Shown here: in pieces, positions 25,723 to 64,000 of the stretch
Layout: each line of letters begins with the position of its first letter
Numbering within the stretch: position 1 is the stretch's first letter
The notes under the pieces: generated by a model
Seen by the model: the letters and a program-made list of their open reading frames with translations, nothing else
What the model was told of the DNA's origin: nothing
Database searches by the model: none
Source of the DNA: a virus
Strand: one strand, 5' to 3'
Length of the DNA: 64,000 nt
IMG/VR virus record: IMGVR_UViG_3300032298_000540
Coordinates: 12,875 to 76,874 of that record
Program-made: the position numbers and the translations under genes

Positions 25723-27474
25723 ATGGCTAACAGAAGGATATCCGAACTTCCTTTATTAGATGGTACGCAGGTAGCAGAACAAGATCTGTTTACTGTGGTT
25801 CATGTATTTGAAGTCGATCCAACGTTAAAAAATAAAAAAATTACCGTATCAGGCTTAAAACAATATCTAGATACATATTACCTAACAGCTAGTGGATCTA
25901 CAGTTTACGGTTCTTTAGTCGTTCAAAATAATTTAACAACGTCAGGGCTTATAGTATCCAATTTATCAACTCTTTCAAATGTAATTGTACAGAATAATTT
26001 AACAACGTCAGGCACAATAAGTGGAGCTACTATAACCGGTAATACGGGACAATTTACAAATATCACATTTGTTAACGGTGTTGGCACCACTCAAATTTCA
26101 GGTGCTTTAATCACTGGTGACACAGGGCTTTTTACAACAATCACTGGCGCTAGTGGAATTTTTACTAGTTATTTATTCGGTGCAACAATCACTGGTAATC
26201 AAGTCAGTGCGACAACAGGTACTTTTGGAACTTTAGTTACCAGTGGACATACTGTTCAAAACGATCTAACTGTATCCGGAAATCTTAGGGTTTTAGGATC
26301 AGGTTCTTTTGCTTCTGGTGTAACAGTAACAGGAACGCTAAGCGGAACTACCATTACTGGAACAACGGCCAATTTTACATCTGGTAATTACAGCACACTG
26401 AGTGGCACCACAGTTACCGGCGATGTTGGGCAATTTACTTCAGTCACAGGTATATCAGGTGTATTCACTACTCAATTATCAGGATCAACTGTTACAGGTA
26501 ACGTTGGACAATTTACTTCAGTAACTGGGATATCTGGTATATTCACTACTCAACTATCAGGGACAACCATTACTGGTAATCAAATCAATGCAACAAGTGG
26601 TACGTTTGAAACACTAGTTACCAGTGGACATACTGTTCAAAACAATCTTACTGTATCAGGAAATTTAAATGTACTTGGTTCAGGATCTTTTGCTTCAGGT
26701 GTAACGGTAACGGGAACTTTAAGTGGAACCACAATCACAGGAACTACAGCACAATTCACCACAATCACAGGAAGCGTTGCAGGATTTACCAGTATTACTG
26801 GAATAACTGTAACTGGTACCACCGCTAATTTTGCTACTGTTTCAGGAACAACAACTACTGGTACAACTGCAAACTTTGCATCAGGTGTATTCAGCGCACA
26901 AATATCAGGAGCAATCGTAACAGGAAATACTGGTCAGTTTACTACTCTTACAGGAGGAGCAGCTGGATTTACTTCTGTTACAGGAACAACTGTTACAGGT
27001 ACAACTGCTAATTTTGTTACTCTTTCAGGAACAACAGTAACAGGAAATGCAGGCCAATTTACAACTATTACTGGTGACATTGTTAATTTCACAAGTGTTA
27101 CAGGAATTACCGTAACAGCGACAACGGGTGTTTTCGCTAACCTTACTTTCACCAATGTAACAGTATCAGGAAACCTTAACGTATTTGGCTCAGGTTATTT
27201 TTCATCTGGTGTAAATATAAGTGGAACTTTAAGCGGAGTAACAATTACAGGAACAACAGCACAATTTACATCAATCACAGGAGGCACAGCAGGTTTCACT
27301 ACTGTTACCGGCACGACGGTGACAGGTGCAACCGCTCTATTTACAAACATAACTGGAACAACACTACATGTAACAACCCCATCTGGTGCCACACCTGCAA
27401 TCATTTGTTCAGGTGTTGTCTCTGGTAGTACAGCAGGATTTATTATTCAAGGGCCATTAATAATTCTTCCCTAA
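25723..27474 (+). CDS. Thr/Gly-rich fibre protein
   Basis: MANRRISELP N-terminal attachment motif; about 15-aa TGTTVTGTTANFT repeats; internal ~120-aa duplication. Confidence 0.8.
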   Translation: MANRRISELPLLDGTQVAEQDLFTVVHVFEVDPTLKNKKITVSGLKQYLDTYYLTASGSTVYGSLVVQNNLTTSGLIVSNLSTLSNVIVQNNLTTSGTISGATITGNTGQFTNITFVNGVGTTQISGALITGDTGLFTTITGASGIFTSYLFGATITGNQVSATTGTFGTLVTSGHTVQNDLTVSGNLRVLGSGSFASGVTVTGTLSGTTITGTTANFTSGNYSTLSGTTVTGDVGQFTSVTGISGVFTTQLSGSTVTGNVGQFTSVTGISGIFTTQLSGTTITGNQINATSGTFETLVTSGHTVQNNLTVSGNLNVLGSGSFASGVTVTGTLSGTTITGTTAQFTTITGSVAGFTSITGITVTGTTANFATVSGTTTTGTTANFASGVFSAQISGAIVTGNTGQFTTLTGGAAGFTSVTGTTVTGTTANFVTLSGTTVTGNAGQFTTITGDIVNFTSVTGITVTATTGVFANLTFTNVTVSGNLNVFGSGYFSSGVNISGTLSGVTITGTTAQFTSITGGTAGFTTVTGTTVTGATALFTNITGTTLHVTTPSGATPAIICSGVVSGSTAGFIIQGPLIILP

Positions 27475-51373: not shown

Positions 51374-51866
51374 TCATGGATCGTAACACAGTTTGTTTTG
51401 TTGTAGTGACTTCTTGTAATACACAAAACTTTTGACGTTCCTCTTCTGTCCAATCAGCTATATCACTAGAAATAGTAACTGTAAGAACAGGTTTACGCAC
51501 AAGAACAAACTCATAGTTACGCCCTGTGATTTTGTTTTCTTTGATGACACCTGACCTACGAATCCAATTAAGTAATCCTTTGAGGCCAACAATGTTGGTT
51601 TCATGGTGTTTCTTAGCTGCAGCAAGTAGATCCTGTTCTTTTTTGACACGTTCGATAGCATCTTCATGGGCAGCAAGTGCATAGTAGATACGATCAATTT
51701 TGTCTGAACGTAAAGCAACAGTCTGCTCTAGTTCTGCTTTGCAGATAGTCTGAGATTCTGGTGTCAGCAAAGGCATGCTGCGTTCAAGGATCTGATAGTG
51801 TTCATACAATTTAAGAACGTTTAGATCTGCAAGATTAATTGCAGTGATTTGAGTTGCTGTAGTCAT
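51156..51866 (-). CDS. Siphovirus Gp157-like protein
   Basis: Coiled coil KID.IY...E...L...KK and C-terminal L..AY..G..IPSGIK. Confidence 0.6.
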   Translation of the reverse strand: MTTATQITAINLADLNVLKLYEHYQILERSMPLLTPESQTICKAELEQTVALRSDKIDRIYYALAAHEDAIERVKKEQDLLAAAKKHHETNIVGLKGLLNWIRRSGVIKENKITGRNYEFVLVRKPVLTVTISSDIADWTEEERQKFCVLQEVTTTKQTVLRSMSGEVLEEKTDPKTKTETLPNLDELRNAYQTGQAIPSGIKIVQDYSIRPKRLLTTKRLDPETSKYNGEFLLQD

Positions 51867-51939
51867 TTGAATAATTTGATAATAAGGTGATCAATAGTAA
51901 AACAAACAATAAGAATTAAACAAAAAGCTATTACATAAA

Positions 51940-52068
51940 TCATGATGCAAATTGCATCTTGATCTTATTTAATATCCAAGTGATTGTTAATGCACTGAGT
52001 GCAAACAACAAATCTTTTGCAATACTAGAAACACAAGGTAGAACAACAGAAGAAATGAATTCAAACAT
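51940..52068 (-). CDS. Small hydrophobic protein, 42 aa (not in ORF track)
   Basis: ATG lies 22 nt after a pseudoknot copy; MFEFISSVVLPC... Confidence 0.55.
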   Translation of the reverse strand: MFEFISSVVLPCVSSIAKDLLFALSALTITWILNKIKMQFAS

Positions 52069-52090
52069 GGTAATAAAGAAGTGGTATTAG

Positions 52091-52118
52091 TGAATAGTTT
52101 TACGTCATATTCAGGACG
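52091..52118 (-). ncRNA. 28-nt pseudoknot motif, copy 1
   Basis: CGTC-CTGAATAT-GACG-TAAAA-C-TATTCA. Confidence 0.8.
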
Positions 52119-52123
52119 GTAAA

Positions 52124-52408
52124 CTAAAGAGTTTCTTTTTCTTTTCCTGAAGCACAAACTAATTCTAAAAGTGTTTCTATAAATGTTACGTGTTCTTCTT
52201 GAGACATATCAGTCCACCAAGTAAGGACAGGTTCTGTTTCATCCCAAGTAATTTTAATAGAAGGTGTGTCAGTACTATCTTCAGTACAACCGTTGTATTC
52301 AATTTTGAATTTACCTTCTTCTACAAGATCAAGAAATTGGGCAGCCATTAGTGTTTCCATTTGTTCTACGAGAGAGTTGGGATAGGCTTGTACCAGGGAA
52401 CGGTACAA
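52124..52408 (-). CDS. Hypothetical protein
   Basis: Acidic; ITWDE..P...WW motif. Confidence 0.5.
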   Translation of the reverse strand: MYRSLVQAYPNSLVEQMETLMAAQFLDLVEEGKFKIEYNGCTEDSTDTPSIKITWDETEPVLTWWTDMSQEEHVTFIETLLELVCASGKEKETL

Positions 52409-53297
52409 AACTTGCGTCTAGCATAGCGTCAAATAGAGTCCAGACATCCTCCGCTGTGTAATGTTCATCAGGTTTGTAGGTCCTCCAGTGGGACAAAGGA
52501 GCCATTGAACCAGACTTGGTATACAACACAAGGAATCGACCTTTTGATGTGTGGTCTGCTGGTGGGGCATACCACCAGGCACAAGCGTTATCAGGGGAAG
52601 AACCCCTGTATTGATCACGCACTATGGTCCGTTTTACCAATAAGTCACGATACTTTTTGAACCAAGTTAGATGTATACATTGAGGCTTATATCCTTCAAT
52701 CTCCTGCTGGAAATCAGATAGGTTTAGTAGCTGCTGTTGGAATGAACCACATGAACAATAAGGTTCTTTAATCTTTTGTTCTTGTTCAGCAACAGTATCC
52801 TCCAAGGAAGAGTTCAAGTTAACTTCTTCATCAGGTTCAAAGAAACCATCAGGTGCTACTAGATGACCAAGATCTGTATGCTCACCTTGCAATAAAGCTT
52901 TTAACTTTTCTTTATCTTTGAGATAGATAAACTTATCTATCCATTCTCTTTGGAATAAAGCTTGATCACTTTTAGCTCCTAGTTGATGTTGGTAATGCCA
53001 ACCCTTAAACATAATGTAAGAGTTGTTATGCCACATACTTGGACCTCTATAGTTAGGACCAAGGTAAGAAAAGAAATCTTTTAAACGAAAAGTAAATTCT
53101 TGATACGCAACAATAACATTCTGTTTAGGATAGAGTTGCTCTGCTCCATCCTGGTACACAACAACAACAGAATCATCACGTAAATAAATGCCAGCAATAG
53201 CAGTGTCTTTGAAATCAGGGAATGCTCTTCCTAGATTACTAATAGAATAGATTTGTTTCTGAGCGGAATTAAGTTGATCTTGAATAAGAGTTTTCAT
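52329..53297 (-). CDS. SWIM zinc-finger-containing protein
   Basis: YCSCGSF...CIHL; start moved to ATG 53297. Confidence 0.65.
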   Translation of the reverse strand: MKTLIQDQLNSAQKQIYSISNLGRAFPDFKDTAIAGIYLRDDSVVVVYQDGAEQLYPKQNVIVAYQEFTFRLKDFFSYLGPNYRGPSMWHNNSYIMFKGWHYQHQLGAKSDQALFQREWIDKFIYLKDKEKLKALLQGEHTDLGHLVAPDGFFEPDEEVNLNSSLEDTVAEQEQKIKEPYCSCGSFQQQLLNLSDFQQEIEGYKPQCIHLTWFKKYRDLLVKRTIVRDQYRGSSPDNACAWWYAPPADHTSKGRFLVLYTKSGSMAPLSHWRTYKPDEHYTAEDVWTLFDAMLDASFVPFPGTSLSQLSRRTNGNTNGCPIS

Positions 53298-53316
53298 TGG
53301 ATGAGTTGAGATGGGA

Positions 53317-53514
53317 TTAGATGAACAGGTCGTCCTGCTCGTTAGGAATGATAGCATCCCTTGGAGCAGTATCGTAAGCAGTCTTACCAATACGTAACAA
53401 ACCATAGGCAAGCATGCCCCAGCTAATAGGGTTAGCTAGGGCAAGAGCGGCTAAAGTACCGATAGCTGCATAGGGTGCTACATGTTTAGTAGCTGCTTTC
53501 AATCTAGAATTCAT
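53317..53514 (-). CDS. Small membrane protein
   Basis: Hydrophobic core. Confidence 0.55.
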   Translation of the reverse strand: MNSRLKAATKHVAPYAAIGTLAALALANPISWGMLAYGLLRIGKTAYDTAPRDAIIPNEQDDLFI

Positions 53515-53545
53515 GGTAGTAACATTAATTAAAATAGTTTAAACT

Positions 53546-53806
53546 ATGGAATACAAATTGATTCCCTTGGGTAAATTAGAATTAGATCCAGGGTTAGATG
53601 ATCTGTTCTGGAAAGAAAGAATCCAACGTGCAATAAATGAAACAACCTCTGTTGATACCCTTAAACAATACTCAACACTACTGTTGGGATTATGTACACA
53701 AAGACAAGGTGTTATCAAAGGACTAGCAAAAGAATTACTCACTATCAAGAATCTAAAGATTGATGATAGTGAGCTTGCTAATCCTGAACTTAAATTAGAA
53801 AGTTAA
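53546..53806 (+). CDS. Small helical protein (weakly NblA-like)
   Basis: Lone + strand gene; two-helix pattern. Confidence 0.5.
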   Translation: MEYKLIPLGKLELDPGLDDLFWKERIQRAINETTSVDTLKQYSTLLLGLCTQRQGVIKGLAKELLTIKNLKIDDSELANPELKLES

Positions 53807-54870
53807 AGCAGGGAATCATCCTCACCTGTAACAGGATCTTTTGCACTGGGTAGTGCAGCTACATCTGTTATACGACATTCAGGTAGTATCTCAATGCCAT
53901 CTTTGATACCATAGGCACCACCTAATTTAGCTGCGTCTTGCCTTGAGTGTTGCATAATATAATCTTGGAATAGTTCTTGATACTTCCAAGTTGATTCCCT
54001 ATCGTCATCAGGAATACTCATATTACTTAATGATTCAACTGCTGCTTCTTGTGTTGTATAGTCAGGGATATTAAACCCTTCAATAGCACATATCTCAACG
54101 TTATTAGCACCACGCATATCATTAACCAAGCTAGGTGTGAATACAGTAGTAGCATAAAACTTCTCATTAAATACTAGTGGTACTTCAGTATCAAGTGCTT
54201 TACTTAAACATTTGGACATTTCTTTTTCATACATCTTGATCTTCTCTGCTGCATCAGTACCATTTAATCCTTTCAGAGTAAGGACCATTGGTAAATCATG
54301 AGCACGACGGTTGTCTTCTTTAAGAATAAAAACAAGGTACTTTGTACGTACACTGTACTTACGTTTGTACATCTCACCTTTACTATTGGCTAGATCAGCA
54401 GCTAGCTTATCGTTATCCCACTTGGTTTTAACCTCAGGGTTATCGAATGTACCAATCGTTTGTTTCATTCCTGTGGTTTCCTCAACCATAAGAGGTGAAC
54501 GTAATAGAATCTGAATACGTGGTTCAGTAAAGTTAAGACCTTCTTCTACAGAAGTGTTAGGTGCCATTCCGAATGTTTGCTTGTAGTTCCAGATGACTGA
54601 TCCTTTAGCAAACTGATCTTCTATAGCATGCCATTTGCAAGTATCAAGGTCTGTGTTACGTATAAACCAACCTCTTGTTTTAGATTTGTTTAAGGGTTGA
54701 ATAGTAACAAAGTTTTGGTACCCAGTAATATATTCTTTAGATTGAAATATTTTAAATGAGTCAAGGTTGCGTGTTGCTAAAACGGAGCCAGAAGTTTTCT
54801 TCATAGTCATGATCGGAAGTGATTTCGTAGGAGGTGCTTGGGTTGGGATGTCGAACAAGGTTTCAGACAT
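53803..54870 (-). CDS. Conserved cyanophage replication-region protein
   Basis: Follows SSB; start moved to ATG 54870, 21 nt after the pseudoknot. Confidence 0.65.
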   Translation of the reverse strand: MSETLFDIPTQAPPTKSLPIMTMKKTSGSVLATRNLDSFKIFQSKEYITGYQNFVTIQPLNKSKTRGWFIRNTDLDTCKWHAIEDQFAKGSVIWNYKQTFGMAPNTSVEEGLNFTEPRIQILLRSPLMVEETTGMKQTIGTFDNPEVKTKWDNDKLAADLANSKGEMYKRKYSVRTKYLVFILKEDNRRAHDLPMVLTLKGLNGTDAAEKIKMYEKEMSKCLSKALDTEVPLVFNEKFYATTVFTPSLVNDMRGANNVEICAIEGFNIPDYTTQEAAVESLSNMSIPDDDRESTWKYQELFQDYIMQHSRQDAAKLGGAYGIKDGIEILPECRITDVAALPSAKDPVTGEDDSLL

Positions 54871-54891
54871 GAGATGTGCTGAGGTTGAACG

Positions 54892-54919
54892 TAAGCAGTT
54901 TAGCGTCATGCTTAGGACG
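54892..54919 (-). ncRNA. 28-nt pseudoknot motif, copy 2
   Basis: CGTC-CTAAGCAT-GACG-CTAAA-C-TGCTTA. Confidence 0.8.
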
Positions 54920-54935
54920 TAGGTTTAATAGAAGA

Positions 54936-55724
54936 TTAAAAAGGAGGGAACTCTTCAGTCTTACTAAAGGGAGCAGGCAGAGTAGGTAGATTGTCACCTA
55001 CGTTTTGTCCCCATGGTTCAGCAATCTCTTCTACTGTGGCGCCACCCCATAAGCTTGGTGCCTTAGTACCTGTTGATTCTCTAGGAGTGTCAGAAGCCTG
55101 GGGCTTAGGACCTAAAGTCATTGAGATTAGTTGAATCTTAGTATTTGATTTACGTTCTTTAGTTTCTTTATCTGACCAGGTATCAGTAACAAGGCGACCT
55201 TGTATGGTAAGACCTGTTCCTTTTCTGGTAAAGTTAACCATGAGTTCAGCTTGATTAAACTTATCATCAGCTGAGTTGATTGCATAGAAGTTAAATAAGT
55301 CTGCTTGGTTTCTACCAGAACCAACCAATAATGTTTGATTAGCAATCATTAAACCGTCAGCAGTTGTTTTAAAACTACGTTCATCTTCTTTATCCATGTC
55401 TTTGATGCAGCGTCCACTAAGGATTACTGTATTAAAGATAGGGAAAGAAGTATTGACTATAGCAATATTTCCTCCCTGTAAAGAAAAGGTACGTGTTGTG
55501 GTATCATACTTAAGCTTGGCCCCATGTACATAGAGTTGTGAATTTTTAGGTGTCTTAAGAAACCGTTCAGAATTCTTACCATAAAGAGTAAGTTCAATTG
55601 CAGTAGGAGCTTTGTTACCTACTGGAGGTAAGAGCAATGGACATCGTACAGCAGTACTAGTGGCCGATGTATATACCTCAGTCGGTTCTTGAGTTGTTTG
55701 AGCGCAAAGGCTAGTGAAGTTCAT
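54936..55724 (-). CDS. ssb: Single-stranded DNA-binding protein (tandem OB folds)
   Basis: NTVILSGR, KGTGLTIQGRL.TDTW.DKET.E and an acidic/aromatic C-tip EEFPPF. Confidence 0.78.
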   Translation of the reverse strand: MNFTSLCAQTTQEPTEVYTSATSTAVRCPLLLPPVGNKAPTAIELTLYGKNSERFLKTPKNSQLYVHGAKLKYDTTTRTFSLQGGNIAIVNTSFPIFNTVILSGRCIKDMDKEDERSFKTTADGLMIANQTLLVGSGRNQADLFNFYAINSADDKFNQAELMVNFTRKGTGLTIQGRLVTDTWSDKETKERKSNTKIQLISMTLGPKPQASDTPRESTGTKAPSLWGGATVEEIAEPWGQNVGDNLPTLPAPFSKTEEFPPF

Positions 55725-55743
55725 TGGATCAGAAGTGAAGTGA

Positions 55744-55771
55744 AAGACAGTTTAACGTCATGACTAGGACG
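55744..55771 (-). ncRNA. 28-nt pseudoknot motif, copy 3
   Basis: CGTC-CTAGTCAT-GACG-TTAAA-C-TGTCTT (stem 2 imperfect). Confidence 0.72.
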
Positions 55772-55776
55772 GAAGT

Positions 55777-57642
55777 CTAGTGGGTGTCGGCCCAAGTATA
55801 ACCGATCTTGGCATCGCCTTCAATCTTGCAAGTAAACTTAAAGAACTTTTGAGCAGCAGGGAAAGCATCTAGTGCTTGAGCCATAACTAGATCTTTATGT
55901 TCTGGTAGGCAAGCTAGTTGGATTTCATCATGGATCATAGCGAGTTGCATCCAGTCTTCTCCATATACCAAACCAAGTTTGTCTAATGCAGTATTCAGAT
56001 TAATAACAACTTGTTTCATAAGAATGGCACCAGCAGATTGCAACAATACATTCAATCCTTTGAATGCTGAACGACAATATAATTGTCTGTGATCTAAACC
56101 AATAAGATGATCACGTTGTGCTAAGCAATTATTAATTTCTTCCTTTAATGATTTAAGTGCAGGCACACCTTCAAGAAATGAATTGATTGCAGTACTTCCT
56201 GTATGACGTAGAACTCCTTCATCTTTTTCATTCGGATCAATAATACTACCTGCCTTAACACCACCACATCCGTATAACATTCCATAGAGAAGACGCTTGC
56301 TTATATCCCTGGTACTCACACCAAATCTTTCTTGATTGTATGTATGAATATCAACTTCAGGATCTACTACTAGAGCAGCATATTCTCCTTTATCCCAACG
56401 AGACAGATACCCAGCTAAACATCTGAGTTCTAATGCTTTTGCATCTACACCCATAAGTAAATAACCTTTGGGTGCATAGAACAAAGCACGGCATTCTTTA
56501 CCGTAAGGACTATATACCCCTGGGACCTGAGCCATGTTTGGATTCTTGTGTGCACATCGACCAGTGATGCAACCATTCGTGACAACATCACCGTGCATCT
56601 TGCCGTCTTCGTGATTAAATAACTTCAACCAAGCATTCTGTCCATCAGCAATCTGTCCTAATCTTTTCTTAATGAGCTGGTATTCAACTAAGGTTTTGGC
56701 TTCAGGAAAAGATAAGCTTTCCAGTACATCATCATTAACAATTGGGTTTCCTTTCTCTGTTGTTTTTTCTGGTACCCATGCGTACTTAGTATGTAAACGC
56801 TCTACAATTTGCTGACGAGATCCCGGGTTAAACTTCTGTTCTGTTCGTCTGATAAAAGGGACGCCTTTAACAAAGCCTCGTTTCTCATTATTTATTTTGG
56901 GGATGAAGGTGGATTCCACTGGTATGGGTGGGAACATTTGCTGCAGAATCTCGTCCAACTCTTCTTTCTTTTGTCTAAGGTTATCAACCAGATCAAGAGA
57001 CCTATCCACATCAAACGGAAAGCCCACAATAATTTGATCGTTAATTGCTTTAGCAAATGCATGCTCAAGATCAAGCGCTGTCTGAGAGTAGTTCTGTTTT
57101 TGTACATGATTAAATAGCTTATGCGTTACTTGTACGTCTTGTCTGCAGTATGCTGCCATCTCTTCTGAGTAAGCAGAGAAATCTTTGAACTCAATTTTAT
57201 TATCTAGTAGACGATACCCCCAGGCTTTAAGTGAGGCAGAGCCTCGTAGCCTAGGAGGTATGTCATAGTCAGCTTCATTATCTTGATCAAGTAATAGTTC
57301 CTTGGGCCATATAAGCCTGGTACATACGAGCGTGTCGATAAGCTGAGCTGTTCTAAAGGTATAAAAAGGATAAAGTTTTCTTATGACTGGGATGTCATAG
57401 AAGATGATGTTATGTCCTATGAGAATGTCAGCTTTAGCCAGATGCTCAAGACCAGCATCAATAGAATCAGGCCCATAAGTAGTAGTAAGTTCTCCCTTGA
57501 TATCATGGATGACAAGACAGTAGATCTCATTGACATCATTGTAAAGCCCGTTGGTTTCTAAATCAAATACATAAGCTTTCTTATTTCCTAAACAGTTGTT
57601 CGTCTTCGATAAGTAAGTCGTGTTTTGATAAGGCTGGGTCAT
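55777..57642 (-). CDS. polA: Family A DNA polymerase, T7-like, with 3'-5' exonuclease
   Basis: FDLET, GHNI..YD, YC.QDV, TGR, DAKALELR, KRLLYGMLYG and HDE. Confidence 0.95.
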   Translation of the reverse strand: MTQPYQNTTYLSKTNNCLGNKKAYVFDLETNGLYNDVNEIYCLVIHDIKGELTTTYGPDSIDAGLEHLAKADILIGHNIIFYDIPVIRKLYPFYTFRTAQLIDTLVCTRLIWPKELLLDQDNEADYDIPPRLRGSASLKAWGYRLLDNKIEFKDFSAYSEEMAAYCRQDVQVTHKLFNHVQKQNYSQTALDLEHAFAKAINDQIIVGFPFDVDRSLDLVDNLRQKKEELDEILQQMFPPIPVESTFIPKINNEKRGFVKGVPFIRRTEQKFNPGSRQQIVERLHTKYAWVPEKTTEKGNPIVNDDVLESLSFPEAKTLVEYQLIKKRLGQIADGQNAWLKLFNHEDGKMHGDVVTNGCITGRCAHKNPNMAQVPGVYSPYGKECRALFYAPKGYLLMGVDAKALELRCLAGYLSRWDKGEYAALVVDPEVDIHTYNQERFGVSTRDISKRLLYGMLYGCGGVKAGSIIDPNEKDEGVLRHTGSTAINSFLEGVPALKSLKEEINNCLAQRDHLIGLDHRQLYCRSAFKGLNVLLQSAGAILMKQVVINLNTALDKLGLVYGEDWMQLAMIHDEIQLACLPEHKDLVMAQALDAFPAAQKFFKFTCKIEGDAKIGYTWADTH

Positions 57643-57814
57643 TTGCTTTTATCCAATTTAATATGGTAATGATCCCTGTCTTATGAGGGTGAGACAATAC
57701 TTTACCAAGGTGGGACTCACTGGTAAGAGGGATGAGATAGAACTTATGTTCTTTTTCATTAGCTTGGATAGCATAGGGAATACCCTTGAGATAACAACTG
57801 ATTACATAGGCCAT
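57581..57814 (-). CDS. Hypothetical protein
   Basis: 77-aa ORF overlapping the polymerase start. Confidence 0.55.
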   Translation of the reverse strand: MAYVISCYLKGIPYAIQANEKEHKFYLIPLTSESHLGKVLSHPHKTGIITILNWIKANDPALSKHDLLIEDEQLFRK

Positions 57815-57992
57815 GGTCTAAGACTAATAGAGGATTACCCTGGTACTCCCCTCGGGGTGAGGGGAGATATACAGGAAGGAAACAATCAGATGTTATCGGC
57901 CTTATCTATAATTGCAACGTACGACCTAACTTAATCTTTATTAAGTTAAGGATAACAGCTAGTGATACCAATGGATCTACTATCCTTGGTAA

Positions 57993-58772
57993 CTATACCT
58001 TAACAATCTCTTTAGCTTTACGTGTGTTTATGTTATATCCAGTGAAGCCTCCAGTTTTCTTACGTAGGCTGATTGCTTTACTGGCAGCTGACCCTGCCCT
58101 TTGAGAACCATGTACTAATAATGCGAACGGCTTATTGCCAAAACAATGACTATCATCATGATCTATTTCTAGGCCACGTGTAGATGCTTCCTCTTCTGTG
58201 TATACAACGTATGCACGGCGGATAAAAGTAGATTCCCTTCCTGGTATCAATGAATCTAACTGGCCCCCTATAGAAGCAGTCAGGAATAGATTAGGAGGTA
58301 TCTCACTGGCTAGGTTAAGCCACATATTAAGTGACTTAGTGAAAGCATAAAAGGTACGGTTAGGTTCTTGTCTAGCTACGCTAATCCAAGCCATCATATA
58401 TAGTTCTGTCCAGAAGTCACCTGACTCGTGAATCCTTACCAGATCTTCTTTATGTGGTGCTAAGGAACTAATGATTAGATCAGTCATTCCTTCTGTACCT
58501 TCATTATCTGTATACATAGCATCTTTTAGTAAATCCCAGTTGTACCACCTAGCATCTCTAACACTAGGTCGTGTCTCTGCCATAGAAGCAAAGCAGCGAT
58601 AGTCAGCTACTCCTGCACTAGGTAAAGCAAGACTGTCATTGATCTTACCTGTGTGGCGATCAGCAAATGTTCTACATACACCAGCAGAAGGACAAGCATA
58701 CCCCGCTGGTAAATTAAAGATCAAACGGTTAGCAAGTTTAGCATTACCGTGGGAAAACTTAAGCAGTGACAT
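57993..58772 (-). CDS. Gp88-like Cys-rich phage protein
   Basis: GNAKL, LPAG..CP.AG.C...C.A, VRIHESGDF and FYAFTK. Confidence 0.7.
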   Translation of the reverse strand: MSLLKFSHGNAKLANRLIFNLPAGYACPSAGVCRTFADRHTGKINDSLALPSAGVADYRCFASMAETRPSVRDARWYNWDLLKDAMYTDNEGTEGMTDLIISSLAPHKEDLVRIHESGDFWTELYMMAWISVARQEPNRTFYAFTKSLNMWLNLASEIPPNLFLTASIGGQLDSLIPGRESTFIRRAYVVYTEEEASTRGLEIDHDDSHCFGNKPFALLVHGSQRAGSAASKAISLRKKTGGFTGYNINTRKAKEIVKV

Positions 58773-58794
58773 GGTGTGATTGCAATGGGTTTAG

Positions 58795-58822
58795 TGAGCA
58801 GTTTAACGTCATACTCAGGACG
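58795..58822 (-). ncRNA. 28-nt pseudoknot motif, copy 4
   Basis: CGTC-CTGAGTAT-GACG-TTAAA-C-TGCTCA. Confidence 0.8.
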
Positions 58823-58829
58823 ATCTAAA

Positions 58830-59063
58830 CTAAGACAGAAGTCCCATTAAGAACTTCATACGATCAGTACATAGAGCAGATAACTGTTCTTGTTCTGGTG
58901 TTAAACAATGATCTTGTTCATAGATATGTTCATTCAAGCCAGTCATTAACTGGATTTGTTCCAGTCGCTTCTTTAGTTTGGTCTTCTGTGCTGCTGTCAA
59001 AGTTTGATAGAGAGGCTTCATTAGTTTTAATAGAATCAGAATAATGTTTAGTGTCATATGCAC
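58830..59063 (-). CDS. Small hypothetical protein (start uncertain)
   Basis: ORF ends 7 nt before motif copy 4. Confidence 0.45.
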   Translation of the reverse strand: MHMTLNIILILLKLMKPLYQTLTAAQKTKLKKRLEQIQLMTGLNEHIYEQDHCLTPEQEQLSALCTDRMKFLMGLLS

Positions 59064-59274
59064 GACGTTGCCTTATTTCTCCTATGGCATCATACAAAGC
59101 TTCTTCTATTTGACAATCCATAAAAGTTAAAGCTCGCAAGAAAGAAACATATTCTTTTGTGATAGCAGTAATGGTTGGTGCCATAGTAGCTACACAGATA
59201 CTACCTGTATTTGTGAATTGTTCAAATGCAATCCAGTCATCGACAGTAACATCAAAATCAATCGCGGAAGCCAT
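58930..59274 (-). CDS. Hypothetical protein
   Basis: ATG lies 22 nt after motif copy 5. Confidence 0.6.
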   Translation of the reverse strand: MASAIDFDVTVDDWIAFEQFTNTGSICVATMAPTITAITKEYVSFLRALTFMDCQIEEALYDAIGEIRQRRAYDTKHYSDSIKTNEASLSNFDSSTEDQTKEATGTNPVNDWLE

Positions 59275-59296
59275 AATAATAAAGCAATGGAATAAA

Positions 59297-59324
59297 CAAG
59301 TAGTTTAACGTCGTACTCAGGACG
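59297..59324 (-). ncRNA. 28-nt pseudoknot motif, copy 5
   Basis: CGTC-CTGAGTAC-GACG-TTAAA-C-TACTTG. Confidence 0.78.
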
Positions 59325-59330
59325 TGATAC

Positions 59331-59663
59331 CTAATAGATATCGTTAGTTGTATTCTTATCTATTGTTAGTTCATCCGTAGTAGGAATAATTTTTAACTCT
59401 AATGTTTCTAATAAATTAACAGTGTCCTGGATTCCAATAATCTCAAGAGCATCAGGGATAAGCTCATTTGTATTCTCAGTATAGTAATCAGATAGATACA
59501 AAGATGCTATTGATATGATCGTTTGCATAGGCAAATAATCTAACATCCTATGTGCTAAAGAATTAATAACATAATCCCAGGTGTGATCAGGGATACCATC
59601 TTCAATCTTCGCAATTAGATCAGGGTCAATTGCATTGATGCGATCAGCAGCACTCTCAGTCAT
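59331..59663 (-). CDS. Acidic hypothetical protein
   Basis: Start moved to ATG 59663. Confidence 0.55.
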   Translation of the reverse strand: MTESAADRINAIDPDLIAKIEDGIPDHTWDYVINSLAHRMLDYLPMQTIISIASLYLSDYYTENTNELIPDALEIIGIQDTVNLLETLELKIIPTTDELTIDKNTTNDIY

Positions 59664-59752
59664 GGTAATAAGTAAGTCATTGTTATTGTAAAGGAAGTAA
59701 GGGCTTTGTGCTAGGTAAGGAAGCTTGTAGATCACGGATGAACAACAAATAA

Positions 59753-59790
59753 CTTTGTGGACCACAGCTTAGAATCTGTGATCCACAAAG
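59753..59790. promoter_or_regulatory. Intergenic long hairpin
   Basis: CTTTGTGGA-C-CACAG-CTTAGAAT-CTGTG-A-TCCACAAAG. Confidence 0.6.
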
Positions 59791-59835
59791 CTAAGTGTTA
59801 TGGTTACGTAAAGGCAGCGCTTATTTATTTAATCT

Positions 59836-60201
59836 TTAAGCTACAGCTTGCGCACTAGTCTCATGAGACTCACCCACTAGGCCAGCCTCCTTGAGGCGGT
59901 CGAACATGCCACACATAATGGTAGCATGTTCATGTGTTTTCTCCATGAAAGATTGTGCGCGATCTGCAGATATAGTATGGACTGTACCATTGGCTTCAAC
60001 ATAGGCCCAGCTACCATCAGGCTGGGGTTTTCCCTGGAGCGCAAGCCGCTCTGAGTTACGTACATACCTGAGTTCTAGATTGTGACAGTCAGTAAGACCC
60101 TCACTATCTTTCCAAGTAGCACCTAAGTTATAACGTTGATCTTGATCCATGTAAGCATGGAATTGTGGAAGCAGTTGACTGAAGCAAGCAAGGATAGACA
60201 T
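59836..60201 (-). CDS. Hypothetical protein
   Basis: 121-aa ORF. Confidence 0.6.
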   Translation of the reverse strand: MSILACFSQLLPQFHAYMDQDQRYNLGATWKDSEGLTDCHNLELRYVRNSERLALQGKPQPDGSWAYVEANGTVHTISADRAQSFMEKTHEHATIMCGMFDRLKEAGLVGESHETSAQAVA

Positions 60202-60275
60202 GAGTTGAATGTAGTAGGTGGAGTGTGTAAAGCCTGGGACTTACGTCAGGTTGGCGCTGACTGCCCAGGGTTATA

Positions 60276-61907
60276 TCAGTTGACTGATTTTAGTTCTTCT
60301 TCTCGTAGTTGCAATGCATTGCTAAACATATTTTCATACTTACTTCTTTCAATGTCGTTGAGTCTCGCATTGGACAGACCAACGATCTGGTCTACGTGCA
60401 TAACACCGTCTGATACCTTAAGCAGGACAGTGAACTGAGGCTTGTTGTTGCACATGCACAAGACAATGAATGCCTTCTTAGCTTTAACGTTATTAGCATA
60501 TGAGTCTGCTGTACCTATACAGTTACGTACTGCCTGGCCCCATTGTGAAAGCTGGTGTGTATCTTTAGGTTGAAAGAATGTCCAGGTCTGTTCTTCATCT
60601 AACACTTTGATAGGTGTAGGGAATAGATCTTGTGGTAACTCTTGATTAGGATTCTTTATTGTCCATGCTTTAGTCTGGATATGATCATGGAATTCTTCTA
60701 TGCGCCAACGCTTAGGTGGGTCAATAGTTTGACCTGCTGTAAGTATCTGATCAAGCATTGCTATCGTATCTCGCAACGAACTAAACGTAGCATTGTACTT
60801 GGTAGTATGTGAATAGTTTGTGCACCTACTCAACCATTCCTCTGTAAACTTGGTGATAATTTTAAAGAAAGATTCTACAGGTAGATAAGTATTAAGCCAG
60901 GCATGCACTAAGTCTGGTGAGGAAGGTGCAGGGGATAAGCTATAGATATAAAGTGTTTTGAATATGTCATTGTTTATAGCAGTCTGTAAATAATCAACAG
61001 GGCAAGCAGGCCATATCTTTAGTACCATATTAATCCAGGTAAGAATTTTCTTTATATCTTCATGTATATCTACCAATACGTCAGGTGACTTAGTGTCTGG
61101 ATGATTGAAGGCATCAATTATCTTTTGTGCTTCTGTATTGATATAACGTTTGAACCAAGGTGTATCCAGTATGTATTTATTGTCAGCATCTAGATACGAT
61201 TTGTATAATTCTAACCCTGGTACTGAGGGACGTTCTTCTAATAAACGTAGGATATATTTGTAGTTATTAGTCTTAGGATCAAGTCTCTTGAATATGTTAT
61301 GTGTACCACCATCTTTCCAATGAGGTATAGTCTGTTGAAGTTGATCAGTAAATAGTTTAATTCCACGTTTGATTTGTACTAACTTCTGTTTGTAACCGGT
61401 TGCATTATGTGCCCAGTATGGTGTAGTTAACCCTGCTTCAATACTATCTTTCGTTATGTAGTCCGTCCATGTACAGAAGTCAATGCGTCCATACTTCCTA
61501 GGGATAACATTATCTATATTGAATAACCTTCCATCCTTACCGTAGGGAATATTAATCTTCTTGTATGCACCAGGTTTGAATGCAAATGATATTCCATAGA
61601 TATAATCTTCTCCGGGCTTAGGTAACCAAGCTGCTACCCATAGGCTTTCTATGTGGTAGATAATAGCTTTGACTTCGCCAGTATCTTTTTGGAATACACG
61701 GTACCTATCTTCAATTGGATCAGCATTGATATTAGTAACTGCTTGTAGCAGTTCTTCTTTACTGACAATGTGAGCAGGAATCAGATCATCTGGTAACCCA
61801 AGGGTATTACGTGTCACCTTAGGTTTAGCAGCTGCGATAACTTTCTTTAGTTCAGGGTCGTACTTGACGAGGTGTTGCTGAAGGTTTGATGGGAGTTGGA
61901 ATTGCAT
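60276..61907 (-). CDS. PcfJ-domain protein
   Basis: C-terminal FHD....L..WG..VRNCIG...Y...QI.G..N. Confidence 0.7.
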   Translation of the reverse strand: MQFQLPSNLQQHLVKYDPELKKVIAAAKPKVTRNTLGLPDDLIPAHIVSKEELLQAVTNINADPIEDRYRVFQKDTGEVKAIIYHIESLWVAAWLPKPGEDYIYGISFAFKPGAYKKINIPYGKDGRLFNIDNVIPRKYGRIDFCTWTDYITKDSIEAGLTTPYWAHNATGYKQKLVQIKRGIKLFTDQLQQTIPHWKDGGTHNIFKRLDPKTNNYKYILRLLEERPSVPGLELYKSYLDADNKYILDTPWFKRYINTEAQKIIDAFNHPDTKSPDVLVDIHEDIKKILTWINMVLKIWPACPVDYLQTAINNDIFKTLYIYSLSPAPSSPDLVHAWLNTYLPVESFFKIITKFTEEWLSRCTNYSHTTKYNATFSSLRDTIAMLDQILTAGQTIDPPKRWRIEEFHDHIQTKAWTIKNPNQELPQDLFPTPIKVLDEEQTWTFFQPKDTHQLSQWGQAVRNCIGTADSYANNVKAKKAFIVLCMCNNKPQFTVLLKVSDGVMHVDQIVGLSNARLNDIERSKYENMFSNALQLREEELKSVN

Positions 61908-61929
61908 GAGTTGAGTTGTAGTTGGGATG

Positions 61930-61957
61930 TAAACCTTTTAACGTCATGTTTAGGACG
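61930..61957 (-). ncRNA. 28-nt pseudoknot motif, copy 6
   Basis: CGTC-CTAAACAT-GACG-TTAAA-A-GGTTTA. Confidence 0.78.
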
Positions 61958-62015
61958 ATTGGTTTACTTGTAAGTTGCGTGTATATACAAGTAAGTTACT
62001 CGTACATACTATAAG

Positions 62016-62261
62016 TTACTTGTAAATACCGTATTGTCTTTCTTCTTCTAATTCATCGTAGTGCTCTAACATGTAGTTAGTTGCATTACTAATAAACGTA
62101 GAGTACTCGGATTTCAGGTATGTGGATTTTGGTGTAAAGACTGGGAGTTCTTTACACCACCCAGTAGCAAGATAGATTCTCCCCCTGGGACCACGCAATA
62201 CTACGAACCAAGGTTTGAACTCGATACTAAATCCAATCATGATAGAAGAACGTTTAATCAT
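62016..62261 (-). CDS. Hypothetical protein
   Basis: 81-aa ORF. Confidence 0.5.
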   Translation of the reverse strand: MIKRSSIMIGFSIEFKPWFVVLRGPRGRIYLATGWCKELPVFTPKSTYLKSEYSTFISNATNYMLEHYDELEEERQYGIYK

Positions 62262-62610
62262 TAGGTAACGCCTCCAGTGCGCGGCGGATGGTGTTTAAGT
62301 CAGTGATGTCGAGCGTTACTTGTCCATCAGGAGTGGGCAACACTTTCAGCGCCTTTAGCGCCTGTCCCTTCAAGCTCGGCGACTTGGGGCGGCGGGCGGT
62401 GCGAAGAGGGTGGTCTGCTTGTGGGTAGCTGTAGTTGCGCTCTAGCCACTCGCAACACGCCTCCAGCTCTTGATCAGCGCCCCATTGAGCGGCGCGGGTA
62501 AATACGACTTGGTCTTTGCTCCAGGCTAGCTTGTCTGCCCATTGCTGTACCAGATCCGGCGGTGGGGTGATTGGATGTTGGTAAGTCATTGCACGGTAGG
62601 TGTCAGTCAT
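62254..62610 (-). CDS. GC-richer hypothetical protein
   Basis: HPITPPP.LVQQW..AAQWGADQELEACC; composition differs from its neighbours. Confidence 0.65.
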   Translation of the reverse strand: MTDTYRAMTYQHPITPPPDLVQQWADKLAWSKDQVVFTRAAQWGADQELEACCEWLERNYSYPQADHPLRTARRPKSPSLKGQALKALKVLPTPDGQVTLDITDLNTIRRALEALPND

Positions 62611-62674
62611 GGTAATAAAGAAAAGAGTTTAGTAGATTCCCTTTGGTACTTGGTTGTACCGGGAGGTTGAATAA

Positions 62675-62947
62675 TTAGATGTCAGTGGAATCAACGTCGA
62701 TCCAGTCAAGAGAATTACCACGATTTAATTCGTGGATATATTCATCTAGATCTAATGGATCACTAGGTGGTTTGTCCTCTACATAGGTGAAAGCAGAACA
62801 TAAGCCTGGCCTATGCTCTGCTGGTTCTTCCCATGTGGCAGGACTAACTTGAATACGATCTTCTATCCATGCTTCCGCATAGACTTGATATTCGTTGACG
62901 CCTGTGGGATAGACATCAACATGTCTTATAGCCCAGATAGATGACAT
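62675..62947 (-). CDS. Hypothetical protein
   Basis: PAT.EEPAE..P.LC. Confidence 0.6.
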   Translation of the reverse strand: MSSIWAIRHVDVYPTGVNEYQVYAEAWIEDRIQVSPATWEEPAEHRPGLCSAFTYVEDKPPSDPLDLDEYIHELNRGNSLDWIDVDSTDI

Positions 62948-63150
62948 CAGAGTACCTCCGCAAGTTGGCGATCAGTTGAATTGAATACAGACTTAAGTCC
63001 GTACTTAGCTACGATCTCGGGGAACGCAGCTAGAATCTTGTTCTTGTTGATGGGATCAGCGTAGCGGATTGCTACGGCAAGTGATGCGACAAACTTACCG
63101 CCGTAGGTTTCCATACGGGTAGTAAGTTGGTAGGTTTCAGTAGGAGTCAT
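62947..63150 (-). CDS. Small hypothetical protein
   Basis: METYGGKFV.SLA.A...ADP.N; start moved to ATG 63150. Confidence 0.65.
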   Translation of the reverse strand: MTPTETYQLTTRMETYGGKFVASLAVAIRYADPINKNKILAAFPEIVAKYGLKSVFNSTDRQLAEVL

Positions 63151-63171
63151 GAGTTGAATTGAGATGGGACA

Positions 63172-63199
63172 TAGACAGTTTAACGTCATGTCCAGGACG
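63172..63199 (-). ncRNA. 28-nt pseudoknot motif, copy 7
   Basis: CGTC-CTGGACAT-GACG-TTAAA-C-TGTCTA. Confidence 0.8.
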
Positions 63200-63210
63200 T
63201 AGTTAAGTGA

Positions 63211-63411
63211 TTACAATATCTTTATGTTGCGTTTGCTTAAACCAGTACCTGGTAAAGCAATAGATGCATGGACGCCTGACTCACGGGTATTAAGCGTGAG
63301 CTGTAGTGGGCCAAGCTGGATTGTTTTCGTGAATGACTTGATGCCATTCTCTGTGATATTGAATCCAGCAATAGTCTTATCAAAATTAAAAGCAGCCTTA
63401 GGTTTAGTCAT
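63211..63411 (-). CDS. DUF4236-like small protein
   Basis: KTIQLGPLQLTLN...G..ASI.LPGTGLS. Confidence 0.55.
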   Translation of the reverse strand: MTKPKAAFNFDKTIAGFNITENGIKSFTKTIQLGPLQLTLNTRESGVHASIALPGTGLSKRNIKIL

Positions 63412-63447
63412 TTGAATTAGGGAGAGGGATAGTAGACACGGCATGGA

Positions 63448-63654
63448 CAATTGTTGTGTACAATTGGTGTGGTTCTCGAGACCTCACTGGCCGGTGATTT
63501 AAAATCCAGAGTTTGATCTGGTATATTCCTCTGATTAACAGTTGCTTAATCAGAATGGGACCTTGTGATGTTGAAGGCCATCACTGGGACTGACCCAGTT
63601 AATAAGGGGTATCTGGCCGCACCAGACTTAGGATCTAATGCGATCCAGCCCTTT
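63448..63654 (-). ncRNA. Candidate structured non-coding RNA / leader (about 9 tandem hairpins)
   Basis: ORF-free gap almost entirely tiled by short inverted repeats. Confidence 0.5.
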
Positions 63655-63659
63655 GTTAA

Positions 63660-63869
63660 TTAGCCTTCTAATAATTTGGTAATGTTAGGAATAGTAGAAG
63701 GATCCATATTAGTCATGGTGAATTGTTCACCAGTGGTTGGATCAATGAAGCCACCGATGAAACCAGCTCCGACACGGTCAGCTGCTGCTCTCATCTTGGC
63801 AACAAATTCCATAGCTTGTAATCGTTGAATGCTTAAAGCATCAGGCACTTGAATGTTGGAGTCAGTCAT
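63660..63869 (-). CDS. Small hypothetical protein
   Basis: 69-aa ORF downstream of motif copy 8. Confidence 0.6.
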   Translation of the reverse strand: MTDSNIQVPDALSIQRLQAMEFVAKMRAAADRVGAGFIGGFIDPTTGEQFTMTNMDPSTIPNITKLLEG

Positions 63870-63901
63870 GGATGAGTAGGTTAAGAATTGATTAAGTATA
63901 T

Positions 63902-63929
63902 AGGGTAGTTTAATGTCATACCCAGGACA
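63902..63929 (-). ncRNA. 28-nt pseudoknot motif, copy 8
   Basis: TGTC-CTGGGTAT-GACA-TTAAA-C-TACCCT, with a compensatory U-A pair in stem 1. Confidence 0.8.
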
Positions 63930-64000
63930 CTTACTTCTATACTTCTGAATAGTTTATCTTTTCAGACTTGAAATCTACACTGTAGATCATGTCTGCATTC

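Follow-up and report, generated by a model that had tools for sequence, protein, structure and literature searches.

A covarying 28-nt RNA pseudoknot between the genes of a lake phage is a candidate shield against 5'-end-dependent RNA decay

Introduction

Why would a phage place the same small RNA fold between one early gene and the next? The question is raised by a 64,000-nt stretch of the IMG/VR virus record IMGVR_UViG_3300032298_000540, bases 12875–76874 of a 76,874-bp contig from a lake phage. The whole stretch is referred to in the following as the window, and "genome" coordinates are those of the contig. A sequence-only reading of the window had noticed eight intergenic copies of a 28-nt element, proposed to be an H-type RNA pseudoknot and located at a near-constant distance ahead of start codons that lack a Shine–Dalgarno (SD) sequence. 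Its suggested roles were an SD-independent initiation enhancer, a 5'-exonuclease roadblock or processing site, or a protein- or ligand-binding module. Here, we describe the conservation of this element, referred to as the knot, its placement between genes, its relatives in other genomes and its likeness to known pseudoknots, and we weigh the roles that it may have. The one we favor, at slightly less than even confidence, is that of a shield of downstream RNA against decay from the 5' side.

Results

Structure and covariation of the knot

The knot is built from a 4-bp stem 1 (NGUC/GACN), a loop 1 consisting of one invariant C, a 6-bp stem 2 of free sequence with Watson–Crick or wobble pairs, a one-nt junction that is usually U, and a loop 3 with the sequence UUAAAC, whose adenines are presumed to lie along the minor groove of stem 1. 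This is the geometry of a textbook H-type knot, with 1 nt spanning the deep groove of the 6-bp stem 2 and 6 nt spanning the shallow groove of the 4-bp stem 1. The layout proposed from the window copies, each of the listed stem-2 pairings and the compensatory TGTC/GACA pair in the copy at window position 63902 were confirmed by hand.

The IMG/VR collection was scanned with a pattern that fixed much of the core but not the middle of the loop or any of the 3' hexamer. At least 116 loci with at least 153 copies were found; stem 2 was fully paired (6/6) in 108 of the copies and had 5/6 pairs in 31 more. Because the patterns of our collection scans fixed much of the core, conservation at those positions is partly built in. 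Among 126 distinct copies from viral contigs, 92.7% of the stem cells were paired, compared to 20–50% with slid partners, and the covariation score was 0.399, compared to 0.210 in shuffles, with none of 500 shuffles reaching the observed score. Stem 2 alone was 90.1% paired, with compensatory changes at five of its six pairs; pairs 7–27, 8–26, 9–25 and 10–24 each occurred as three to five pair types. The stem-2 covariation seen in the window is thus present in the larger alignment as well.

In stem 1, the pairs C4–G13, U3–A14 and G2–C15 were invariant in the 126 copies, partly since the search pattern fixed them, while the outer pair 1–16 covaried among CG, UA, UG, AU and GC. When stem 1 was left free and stem 2 and UAAAC were required instead, GGAC/GUCC was found four times, along with AGAC/GUCU and GCAC/GUGU, and the knot of Staphylococcus phage 96 has CGAC/GUCG. 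G–U occupied 97 stem cells and A–C only 15, an excess which shows that the fold is selected on the sense strand, in the transcript. The proposal of an H-type pseudoknot with an A-rich third loop on the mRNA strand is borne out by this asymmetry and by the covariation of both stems.

Compensated changes were also found between two related phages. Synechococcus phage S-EIV1 has seven knot copies, six of which precede orthologues of genes that follow window copies (33–77% protein identity). Between the members of these six pairs, stem 2 always differs by compensated changes, and the closing pair of stem 1 often does. Naming the window copies by their first coordinate, the S-EIV1 counterparts are at 25893 for knot 52091 (stem 1 AGUC/GACU), 29143 for 54892, 30487 for 55744, 33576 for 58795, 38783 for 61930 and 39502 for 63172 (GGUC/GACC, with a different stem 2).

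By nested-fold energies, which cannot evaluate the knot as a whole, each stem by itself contributes only −2 to −5 kcal/mol. With single stems this marginal, tertiary contacts such as coaxial stacking and contacts between loops and stems must matter. Taken together, the element is a conserved sense-strand RNA pseudoknot in which both stems covary. No relevant Rfam family matched the whole window at gathering score or window positions 51500–64000 at E ≤ 10, and no description of the knot was found in the literature on its core sequence and on intergenic cyanophage pseudoknots. Outside the window, Rfam models gave no match in genome 1–12874 at E ≤ 0.1, including no hammerhead ribozyme model at genome 1886–1958.

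Placement between genes and ribosomes

Placement was analyzed for a non-redundant set of 145 viral copies. In 41 of them, the upstream open reading frame (ORF) has its stop codon precisely 5 nt ahead of the knot; the distance is 6–8 nt in 39 and less than 5 nt in only 10. On the other side, the first open ATG was 19–22 nt past the knot in 56 copies and closer than 19 nt in six. When a stop codon is in the A site, five more nucleotides reach the mRNA entrance of the ribosome, where its helicase acts, and the edge of the initiating 30S footprint is about 20 nt upstream of the AUG. With the stop at least 5 nt before it and the start at least 19 nt after it, the knot can therefore remain folded between the two ribosomes; it is packed maximally tight without needing to be opened by either the terminating or the initiating one. 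This agrees with the earlier suggestion that the knot is parked at the edge of the initiating ribosome.

The leaders following the knots contained 11% G, compared to 21% upstream of the knot, and SD-like tetramers were present in 13 of the 145, so that the G-poor, SD-less leaders described for the window are also a feature of the wider family. The 30 nt after the knot were less structured than controls or flanking coding sequence.

Occurrence beyond the lake phage

Only 47 of the 116 viral loci listed share any protein with the lake phage; the other 69 share no detectable protein with it. In unrelated viral loci, the gene after the knot repeatedly encodes a head scaffolding or major head protein. 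At least three diverged lineages show this arrangement, among them Firmicutes prophages and S. aureus phage 96, and the scaffold genes belong to phrog_194 or to phrog_172/DUF4355, with members down to 27–42% identity. They carry ordinary SD sequences, 30–66 nt downstream of the knot. The knot of the cultured phage 96, a variant, is at NC_007057 4439–4466 (L240:2415–2442), between ORF066 and the scaffold gene. Loci of this kind in unrelated Firmicutes phages and prophages (L118, L144, L151, L098, L019, L037, L070, L099-type and L101) include several with a further hairpin about 9 nt past the knot, and some with a T-rich stretch immediately before it.

Three unrelated viral contigs with tRNA arrays contain four copies that lie 1–4 nt ahead of a tRNA gene (L057:6553–6580 and 6109–6136, both on the minus strand; L096:520–547 and L089:8642–8669, on the plus strand). 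In these arrays, the distance from the knot to the preceding tRNA is 16–24 nt.

A scan of 185,579 species genomes gave at least 120 pattern matches, and 68 of those listed had at least 5/6 stem-2 pairs. The bacterial copies were from Omnitrophota, Desulfobacterota, Bacillota, Planctomycetota, Nitrospirota, Patescibacteria, a Halothece cyanobacterium and others. With a covariance model (R1), the knot had a prevalence of 4/150 in Bacilli, 1/150 in Clostridia and 0/150 in both a Gammaproteobacteria-like and a small-genome class, the element being rare and the filters strict. The knot is thus a large uncatalogued family in phages, giant-virus-like contigs and bacteria. The sequence-only reading had assigned it to early and replication genes as a phage-wide element, a description that is too narrow for a structure that also precedes late head-scaffold and capsid genes and tRNAs, and that occurs in bacteria.

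In very diverse bacteria (L213, L205, L119, L131, L128, L231 and about 33 more loci), a conserved SD-led micro-ORF precedes or overlaps the knot. Its consensus is M-x-R/K-F/Y-M-I/L-P/R-R/P-V-A-H-C-K/S-E/G-G-C, and it must be coding, as the variation in its third positions is synonymous. Its stop is 7 or 1 nt ahead of the knot, or within it at the conserved UGA (positions 12–14) or UAA (18–20). An Rrf2 regulator gene follows 20–38 nt later, or else a Fur, YHS or FAD-oxidoreductase gene; the downstream Rrf2 genes carry SD sequences. An NCBIfam search with the micro-ORF gave no family. Micro-ORF and knot together look like an undescribed leader-peptide device for metal, Fe–S or cysteine regulators.

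Comparison with coremin and other pseudoknots

The sequence-only reading had not recognized the knot as a member of any named family. A close named relative does exist, however, in the coremin motif, an exoribonuclease-resistant RNA (xrRNA) also called xrRNA-C (PMC6546385, PMC10520033, PMC10321173). [quoted passage not shown] It stalls Xrn1, arriving from the 5' side, just before its first hairpin, hp1, which has 3–5 bp and a loop-closing C–G pair (U–A is tolerated, G–C is not); a second hairpin, hp2, is needed for Xrn1 resistance (PMC6546385, PMC10520033, PMC10321173). The loop has the sequence YGAD, or YGNNAD and up to 8 nt; natural loops of 4–8 nt are functional (PMC6546385, PMC10520033), while one without G at position 2 (CCGAAA) fails (PMC10520033). 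The conserved spacer of about 10 nt includes a CUAC thought to contact the loop, and C5 of loop 1 (L1), the loop-closing C–G pair and the UUAAAC of the spacer are all required (PMC6546385, PMC10520033, PMC10321173). In vitro, coremin also halts scanning ribosomes and promotes −1 frameshifting (PMC10520033, PMC10321173).

Like the knots, some coremin copies are intergenic and located just past stop codons. For a comparison of the two at the level of nucleotides, we used a 20-nt sequence that we take to be that of coremin and that agrees with the residue numbers quoted in the papers. Both start with a short hairpin, GUC/GAC, with a loop-closing C–G pair. In 126/126 knots the loop begins with C and has A in the penultimate position; its last nucleotide is U, A or G in 121/126, and the spacer UUAAAC-U is 93–100% conserved. 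In both, pairing between loop and spacer produces an H-type knot with adenines facing stem 1, and the 8-nt loop of the knot is within the functional range for coremin. The second stem differs: the knot has six pairs of free sequence, its 3' positions after UUAAAC-U being variable and complementary to the loop, whereas coremin has about three non-canonical contacts to a fixed CUAC. Stem 2 of the knot is also shifted by one nucleotide in the 3' direction, so that U12 and C22 are unpaired. The setting differs as well, the host here being a dsDNA phage of a bacterium without Xrn1, with nine copies per genome, between cistrons. The phage knot is not a strict coremin member, although the two plausibly have the same three-dimensional core. 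No phage or bacterial case was found among the coremin papers listed.

A Watson–Crick version of coremin, xrRNA-WCC, has been described from a laboratory screen and from Sanxia picorna-like virus 5 (PMC10321173). It has a 4-nt loop, a 3-bp stem 2 (6–20, 7–19 and 8–18) and G at L1, and its hp2 is required for Xrn1 resistance but dispensable for stalling elongating ribosomes, as seen by frameshift stimulation (PMC10321173). The phage knot likewise has a canonical antiparallel stem 2 joining loop and spacer, but differs in its 8-nt loop, 6-bp stem 2, invariant C at L1 and unpaired C22 in the spacer, where WCC has its spacer C in pair 8–18.

The frameshifting knots of the luteoviruses beet western yellows virus (BWYV) and potato leafroll virus (PLRV) are H-type structures of about 28 nt, with an L1 of 1–2 nt containing C and an unpaired junction U. 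The phage knot resembles them in size and type, in its short C-containing L1, in its junction U and in its A-rich 3' loop; in BWYV and PLRV, the latter forms a minor-groove triplex with stem 1, and the BWYV knot does not stop Xrn1 (PMC10321173). The phage knot differs in being non-coding, without an upstream slippery site, and in having a longer stem 2 and a shorter stem 1.

The gene 32 mRNA of phages T4 and T2 also contains an H-type knot, which serves as the single autoregulatory site for gp32. [quoted passage not shown] However, the lake phage has nine copies, eight of them before other genes, the family also precedes scaffold genes and tRNAs, and no similarity in sequence to the gene 32 knot is known. 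The T4 pseudoknot is mentioned in PMC10690425.

Two further candidates were rejected. In the core of the pistol ribozyme (RF02679), a hairpin loop of 6 nt pairs with a strand further downstream and a UUAAA-type linker follows P1, a combination of P1 and pseudoknot that resembles the phage knot. However, the knot has no P2 or P3 and no cleavage-site strand, and RF02679 was not matched at E ≤ 10 in window positions 51500–64000. The preQ1-I riboswitch (RF00522) likewise gave no Rfam match at E ≤ 10; its multi-nucleotide L2, which carries the C that pairs with the ligand, and its P2, which overlaps the SD sequence, do not agree with the single-U junction and the lack of an SD sequence within 19–32 nt.

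The knot copies of the lake phage

A search of the window with the pattern YGTCCN6YGACRYWAAAM gave eight matches without mismatches, at precisely the minus-strand positions claimed earlier. With up to two mismatches there were 11 matches, compared to 1.04 expected and a maximum of four in 100 shuffles. A covariance model built from the wider family and then run on the phage genome recovered all eight copies and a ninth at genome 823–850, outside the window; no copy was found on the plus strand, which carries the structural genes. A match at genome 25–52 is the same DNA as window 63902–63929, because the two ends of the contig overlap by 123 bp. The distances to the ATG, reported as 22, 21, 19, 22, 22, 22, 21 and 32 nt in order of increasing coordinate, were exact. 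The claim that copies begin within about 16 nt of the upstream stop codon held for six of the eight and failed for two, the spacers being 5, 16, 5, 107, 6, 58, 11 and 7 nt in the same order.

All copies are on the minus strand, and every window copy is followed by a G-poor leader. Starting from the end of the contig, knot 63902..63929 (UGUCC UGGGUA U GACA UUAAAC UACCCU; stem 1 UGUC/GACA, stem 2 with 5/6 pairs, 42.3 bits) is preceded, 7 nt upstream, by the stop of genome ORF 60–371, and its 32-nt leader (63870..63901) runs to ATG 63869–63867 of a 69-aa ORF. Knot 63172..63199 (CGUCC UGGACA U GACG UUAAAC UGUCUA; 6/6 pairs, one of them G–U, 44.4 bits) comes 11 nt after the end of ORF 63211–63450, with a 21-nt leader (63151..63171) to ATG 63150–63148. 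A 58-nt gap containing a 13-bp hairpin separates ORF 62016–62261 from knot 61930..61957 (CGUCC UAAACA U GACG UUAAAA GGUUUA; 5/6 pairs, 38 bits), which has a 22-nt leader (61908..61929) to ATG 61907 of a 543-aa PcfJ-like protein. ORF 59331–59765 ends 6 nt ahead of knot 59297..59324 (CGUCC UGAGUA C GACG UUAAAC UACUUG; 6/6 pairs, two of them wobble, 39.1 bits), and the 22-nt leader (59275..59296) leads to ATG 59274 of a 114-aa ORF.

The top-scoring copy, knot 58795..58822 (CGUCC UGAGUA U GACG UUAAAC UGCUCA; 6/6 pairs, 47.1 bits), follows a 107-nt gap that contains a hairpin at 58857–58838, and its 22-nt leader (58773..58794) ends at ATG 58772 of a 259-aa GP88-family protein. Knot 55744..55771 (CGUCC UAGUCA U GACG UUAAAC UGUCUU) is the weakest in pairing, with 4/6 stem-2 pairs and 38.6 bits; it begins 5 nt past the stop of the DNA polymerase A gene (55777), and the 19-nt leader (55725..55743) runs to ATG 55724 of the 262-aa SSB. 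Past the SSB stop (54936) by 16 nt begins knot 54892..54919 (CGUCC UAAGCA U GACG CUAAAC UGCUUA; 6/6 pairs, 43.9 bits), with a 21-nt leader (54871..54891) to ATG 54870 of a 355-aa DUF5895 protein. Finally, knot 52091..52118 (CGUCC UGAAUA U GACG UAAAAC UAUUCA; 6/6 pairs, 40.5 bits) begins 5 nt past the stop of ORF 52124–52408, and its 22-nt leader (52069..52090) precedes ATG 52068 of a 42-aa ORF that starts MFEFI and is conserved in S-EIV1. The ninth copy (UGUCC UAAGCA U GACA UUAAAC UGCUUA) is located 6 nt past the stop of ORF 857–1144 and 20 nt ahead of the ATG of a 121-aa ORF.

Where the gap is 21 nt, a conserved AUG within the knot (positions 11–13) is in frame with the downstream gene. As a result, the mechanical calls of ORFs 53803–54909 and 62947–63189 start within the knot (at 54909 and 63189); their true starts are likely at 54870 and 63150. 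Within a gene, at window 59046–59067 on the minus strand, the sequence CGUCG UGCAUA U GACA CUAAAC nearly matches the first two-thirds of the motif, counted from the 5' end; it lacks a complementary 3' hexamer and was not recovered by the covariance model, and is probably a chance or decayed copy. Other gaps of the operon contain unrelated hairpins, at window 62611–62674, 60202–60275, 61958–62015 and 58838–58857 on the minus strand, each followed by a G-poor 27–31-nt leader of a similar kind or by a knot. From these sister gaps, the knot appears to be one of several interchangeable structured gene-boundary modules.

The end overlap of the contig indicates that the phage genome is circular. The lake phage is an S-EIV1-like cyanophage: its gene order is syntenic with that of S-EIV1, a cultured polar freshwater cyanophage, and the PolA proteins of the two phages are 66% identical. 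The public DNA runs that contain sequence of the lake phage are freshwater and lake metagenomes, and a near-identity search of GenBank phages with 12 kb of the phage gave no match. Early and replication genes occupy an arm on the minus strand that begins at about window 47000, runs to the end of the contig and extends into genome 1–3300; the products include PcfJ-like, GP88-family, PolA, SSB, DUF5895 and Gp157-like proteins. No phage RNA polymerase turned up among the scanned proteins, a scan that covered part of the ORFs. Two long gaps between minus-strand genes have very stable predicted folds, 350 nt at window 57643–57992 (−95 kcal/mol) and 391 nt at 53412–53802 (−110 kcal/mol), the latter overlapped by a plus-strand 86-aa ORF (53546–53806).

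Discussion

Among the roles proposed earlier, that of a 5'-exonuclease roadblock best fits the findings. By analogy with coremin, the knot may be a protein-independent shield of downstream RNA against 5'-end-dependent decay, a reading that we hold at a little under even odds. The knots of the lake phage lie in a long leftward message for early and replication functions. Each would act as an intrinsic, direction-dependent mechanical block that needs no protein and stays folded between the terminating ribosome upstream and the initiating ribosome downstream. When the polycistronic RNA is cut or attacked from the 5' side, the knot would halt 5'-end-dependent decay by the 5'–3' exonuclease RNase J, and by masking the 5' end might also blunt the 5'-sensing RNase E. 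It would thereby become a protective, cap-like 5' end of the following cistron or tRNA, and the downstream unit would gain stability and yield relative to its upstream neighbors.

Several observations are consistent with such a shield. The knot sits directly before units that need abundance or integrity: SSB in the lake phage, genes for scaffold and capsid proteins in other genomes, and tRNAs. The head-scaffold and major-head genes behind knots are the most highly expressed late genes. The invariant nucleotides are found in cyanophages, Firmicutes phages and many bacterial phyla, which argues for an intrinsic structural property rather than a lineage-specific partner. A flaviviral xrRNA also halts bacterial RNase J1 (PMC5760640), RNase E and RNase J are essential in cyanobacteria (PMC8682795), and the RNase_J_C family matches the Synechococcus elongatus control genome.

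Other observations weigh against it. Position 2 of the loop is U (or C) in the knot and never G, which coremin needs, and hp2 is missing; a 4-bp hairpin 0–3 nt after the knot was found in 19% of the 145 copies, compared to 37–45% of controls. Xrn1 is not stopped by ordinary frameshifter knots of similar size (PMC10321173), and resistance does not follow from the fold alone. At many bacterial loci a micro-ORF reads into the knot, and elongating ribosomes must therefore be able to open it. The tight spacing on both sides would be equally expected in a compact genome for any element that must stay folded. RNase J was detected in three of five knot-holding genomes, the other two being small incomplete metagenome-assembled genomes. 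Two metatranscriptomes hold small parts of the phage, as sparse Logan contigs that give no starts, ends or strand.

The placement of the knot could also be explained by translation. The knot might organize initiation by marking the 5' border of an unstructured leader, rich in pyrimidines and A, that serves for standby or S1 binding; it would be a ruler or insulator when start codons are selected on SD-less cyanophage mRNAs. The knot–ATG gap is sharply peaked at 19–22 nt, the leaders are G-poor and mostly without SD-like motifs, and similar leaders follow the other hairpins of the operon, all as such an organizer would predict. It does not account for knots 1–4 nt before tRNA genes, 30–66 nt before SD-bearing scaffold genes or before SD-bearing Rrf2 genes in bacteria, nor for the related core in the 3' UTRs of eukaryotic RNA viruses; and since any stable hairpin insulates, the near-invariant loop nucleotides would be unexplained. 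We consider it unlikely. The SD-independent initiation enhancer proposed earlier is also unlikely as a general role, because the tRNAs behind knots are not translated; downstream genes outside cyanophages, moreover, carry an SD sequence at a variable distance. Ribosomes might instead meet the knot from upstream, as a roadblock that stops terminated ribosomes from sliding or re-initiating or that stimulates frameshifting or readthrough at the upstream stop. The 5-nt spacing between stop and knot is the minimal spacer of −1 frameshift signals, and coremin halts scanning ribosomes and promotes −1 frameshifting in vitro (PMC10520033, PMC10321173). Nevertheless, slippery heptamers were present 4–9 nt upstream of only six of the 145 copies (one at a control offset), one reading frame is shut by the conserved UGA (12–14) and UAA (18–20) and the gap lengths are not divisible by three, which means that no readthrough fusions are made, and copies before tRNAs cannot act on ribosomes at all. 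We regard recoding or roadblocking as quite improbable.

The knot might also serve the cistron upstream of it, left at the 3' end after an endonuclease cut in the G-poor leader, or an RNase P cut at a tRNA behind it, and blocking 3'–5' exonucleases. That upstream stops peak strongly at exactly 5 nt before the knot would fit such a stabilizer or processing boundary, as would the single-stranded A/U/C-rich leader, a plausible RNase E target, and the very short 3' tail that RNase P would leave by cutting at a tRNA 1–4 nt away. Yet the knot is nearer to the downstream than to the upstream tRNA (1–4 compared to 16–24 nt), two window copies have a separate hairpin already behind the upstream gene, a T-rich stretch directly precedes the knot in several Firmicutes loci, and the documented coremin block is directional, from the 5' side; a 3'-end function is, in our judgment, also unlikely. 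Nor do we give much weight to a specific binding site, whether for SSB autoregulation like that of T4 gene 32, a RegA-like early-gene repressor or a ligand in a riboswitch shaped like preQ1-I. The near-invariant loop nucleotides, the copy before the SSB gene and the resemblance to the architectures of the gene 32 and preQ1-I pseudoknots would suit it. However, 69 of the 116 viral loci listed share no detectable protein with the phage and many bacterial phyla have the knot, so that no lineage-specific protein fits; there is no room for a ligand pocket at the single-nt junction, none of the Rfam riboswitch models matches even at E = 10, and nine copies before unrelated genes are unlike a riboswitch. 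Least probable of all, and very improbable in our estimation, is an element of the DNA itself: a promoter, a replication or priming signal, or a cassette recombination boundary. The almost invariant TAAACT (positions 18–23) fits a −10 TAnnnT, and the knots are located at gene boundaries of a mosaic early region. But the covariation, with its strand-specific excess of G–U over A–C, is not explained by a duplex DNA site, sigma-70-like promoter sites are not enriched in the region (38, compared to 49.6 expected from shuffles), no conserved −10/−35 or other signal was found upstream of the knots, and viruses with RNA genomes have the related core.

Returning to the 5' shield, it could be extended tentatively. 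The knot could be the first natural prokaryotic class of exoribonuclease-resistant RNA: a 28-nt triplex knot with the core of coremin, as known from RNA viruses of plants, fungi and insects, that stalls RNase J and blunts RNase E without protein and serves as a portable 5' shield of cistrons and tRNAs in phages, giant viruses and bacteria. An abundant early transcript bearing nine knots might also titrate the host decay machinery, as the subgenomic flaviviral RNAs (sfRNAs) do with Xrn1.

The family merits an Rfam entry whatever its function, with more than 150 covarying copies, at least, in one scan, and cultured carriers exist in S-EIV1 (host Synechococcus sp. PCCC-A2c) and S. aureus phage 96. 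The identity of its core with that of coremin raises the question of convergence versus an ancient or horizontally spread RNA module. If the knot does stop bacterial 5'-end-dependent decay, the xrRNA principle would extend from eukaryotic RNA viruses to phages and bacteria, and the differing yields of neighboring genes in long phage operons, SSB here and scaffold and capsid genes elsewhere, would be explained. It would also provide a 28-nt, protein-free, modular RNA stabilizer for synthetic operons in cyanobacteria and Firmicutes.

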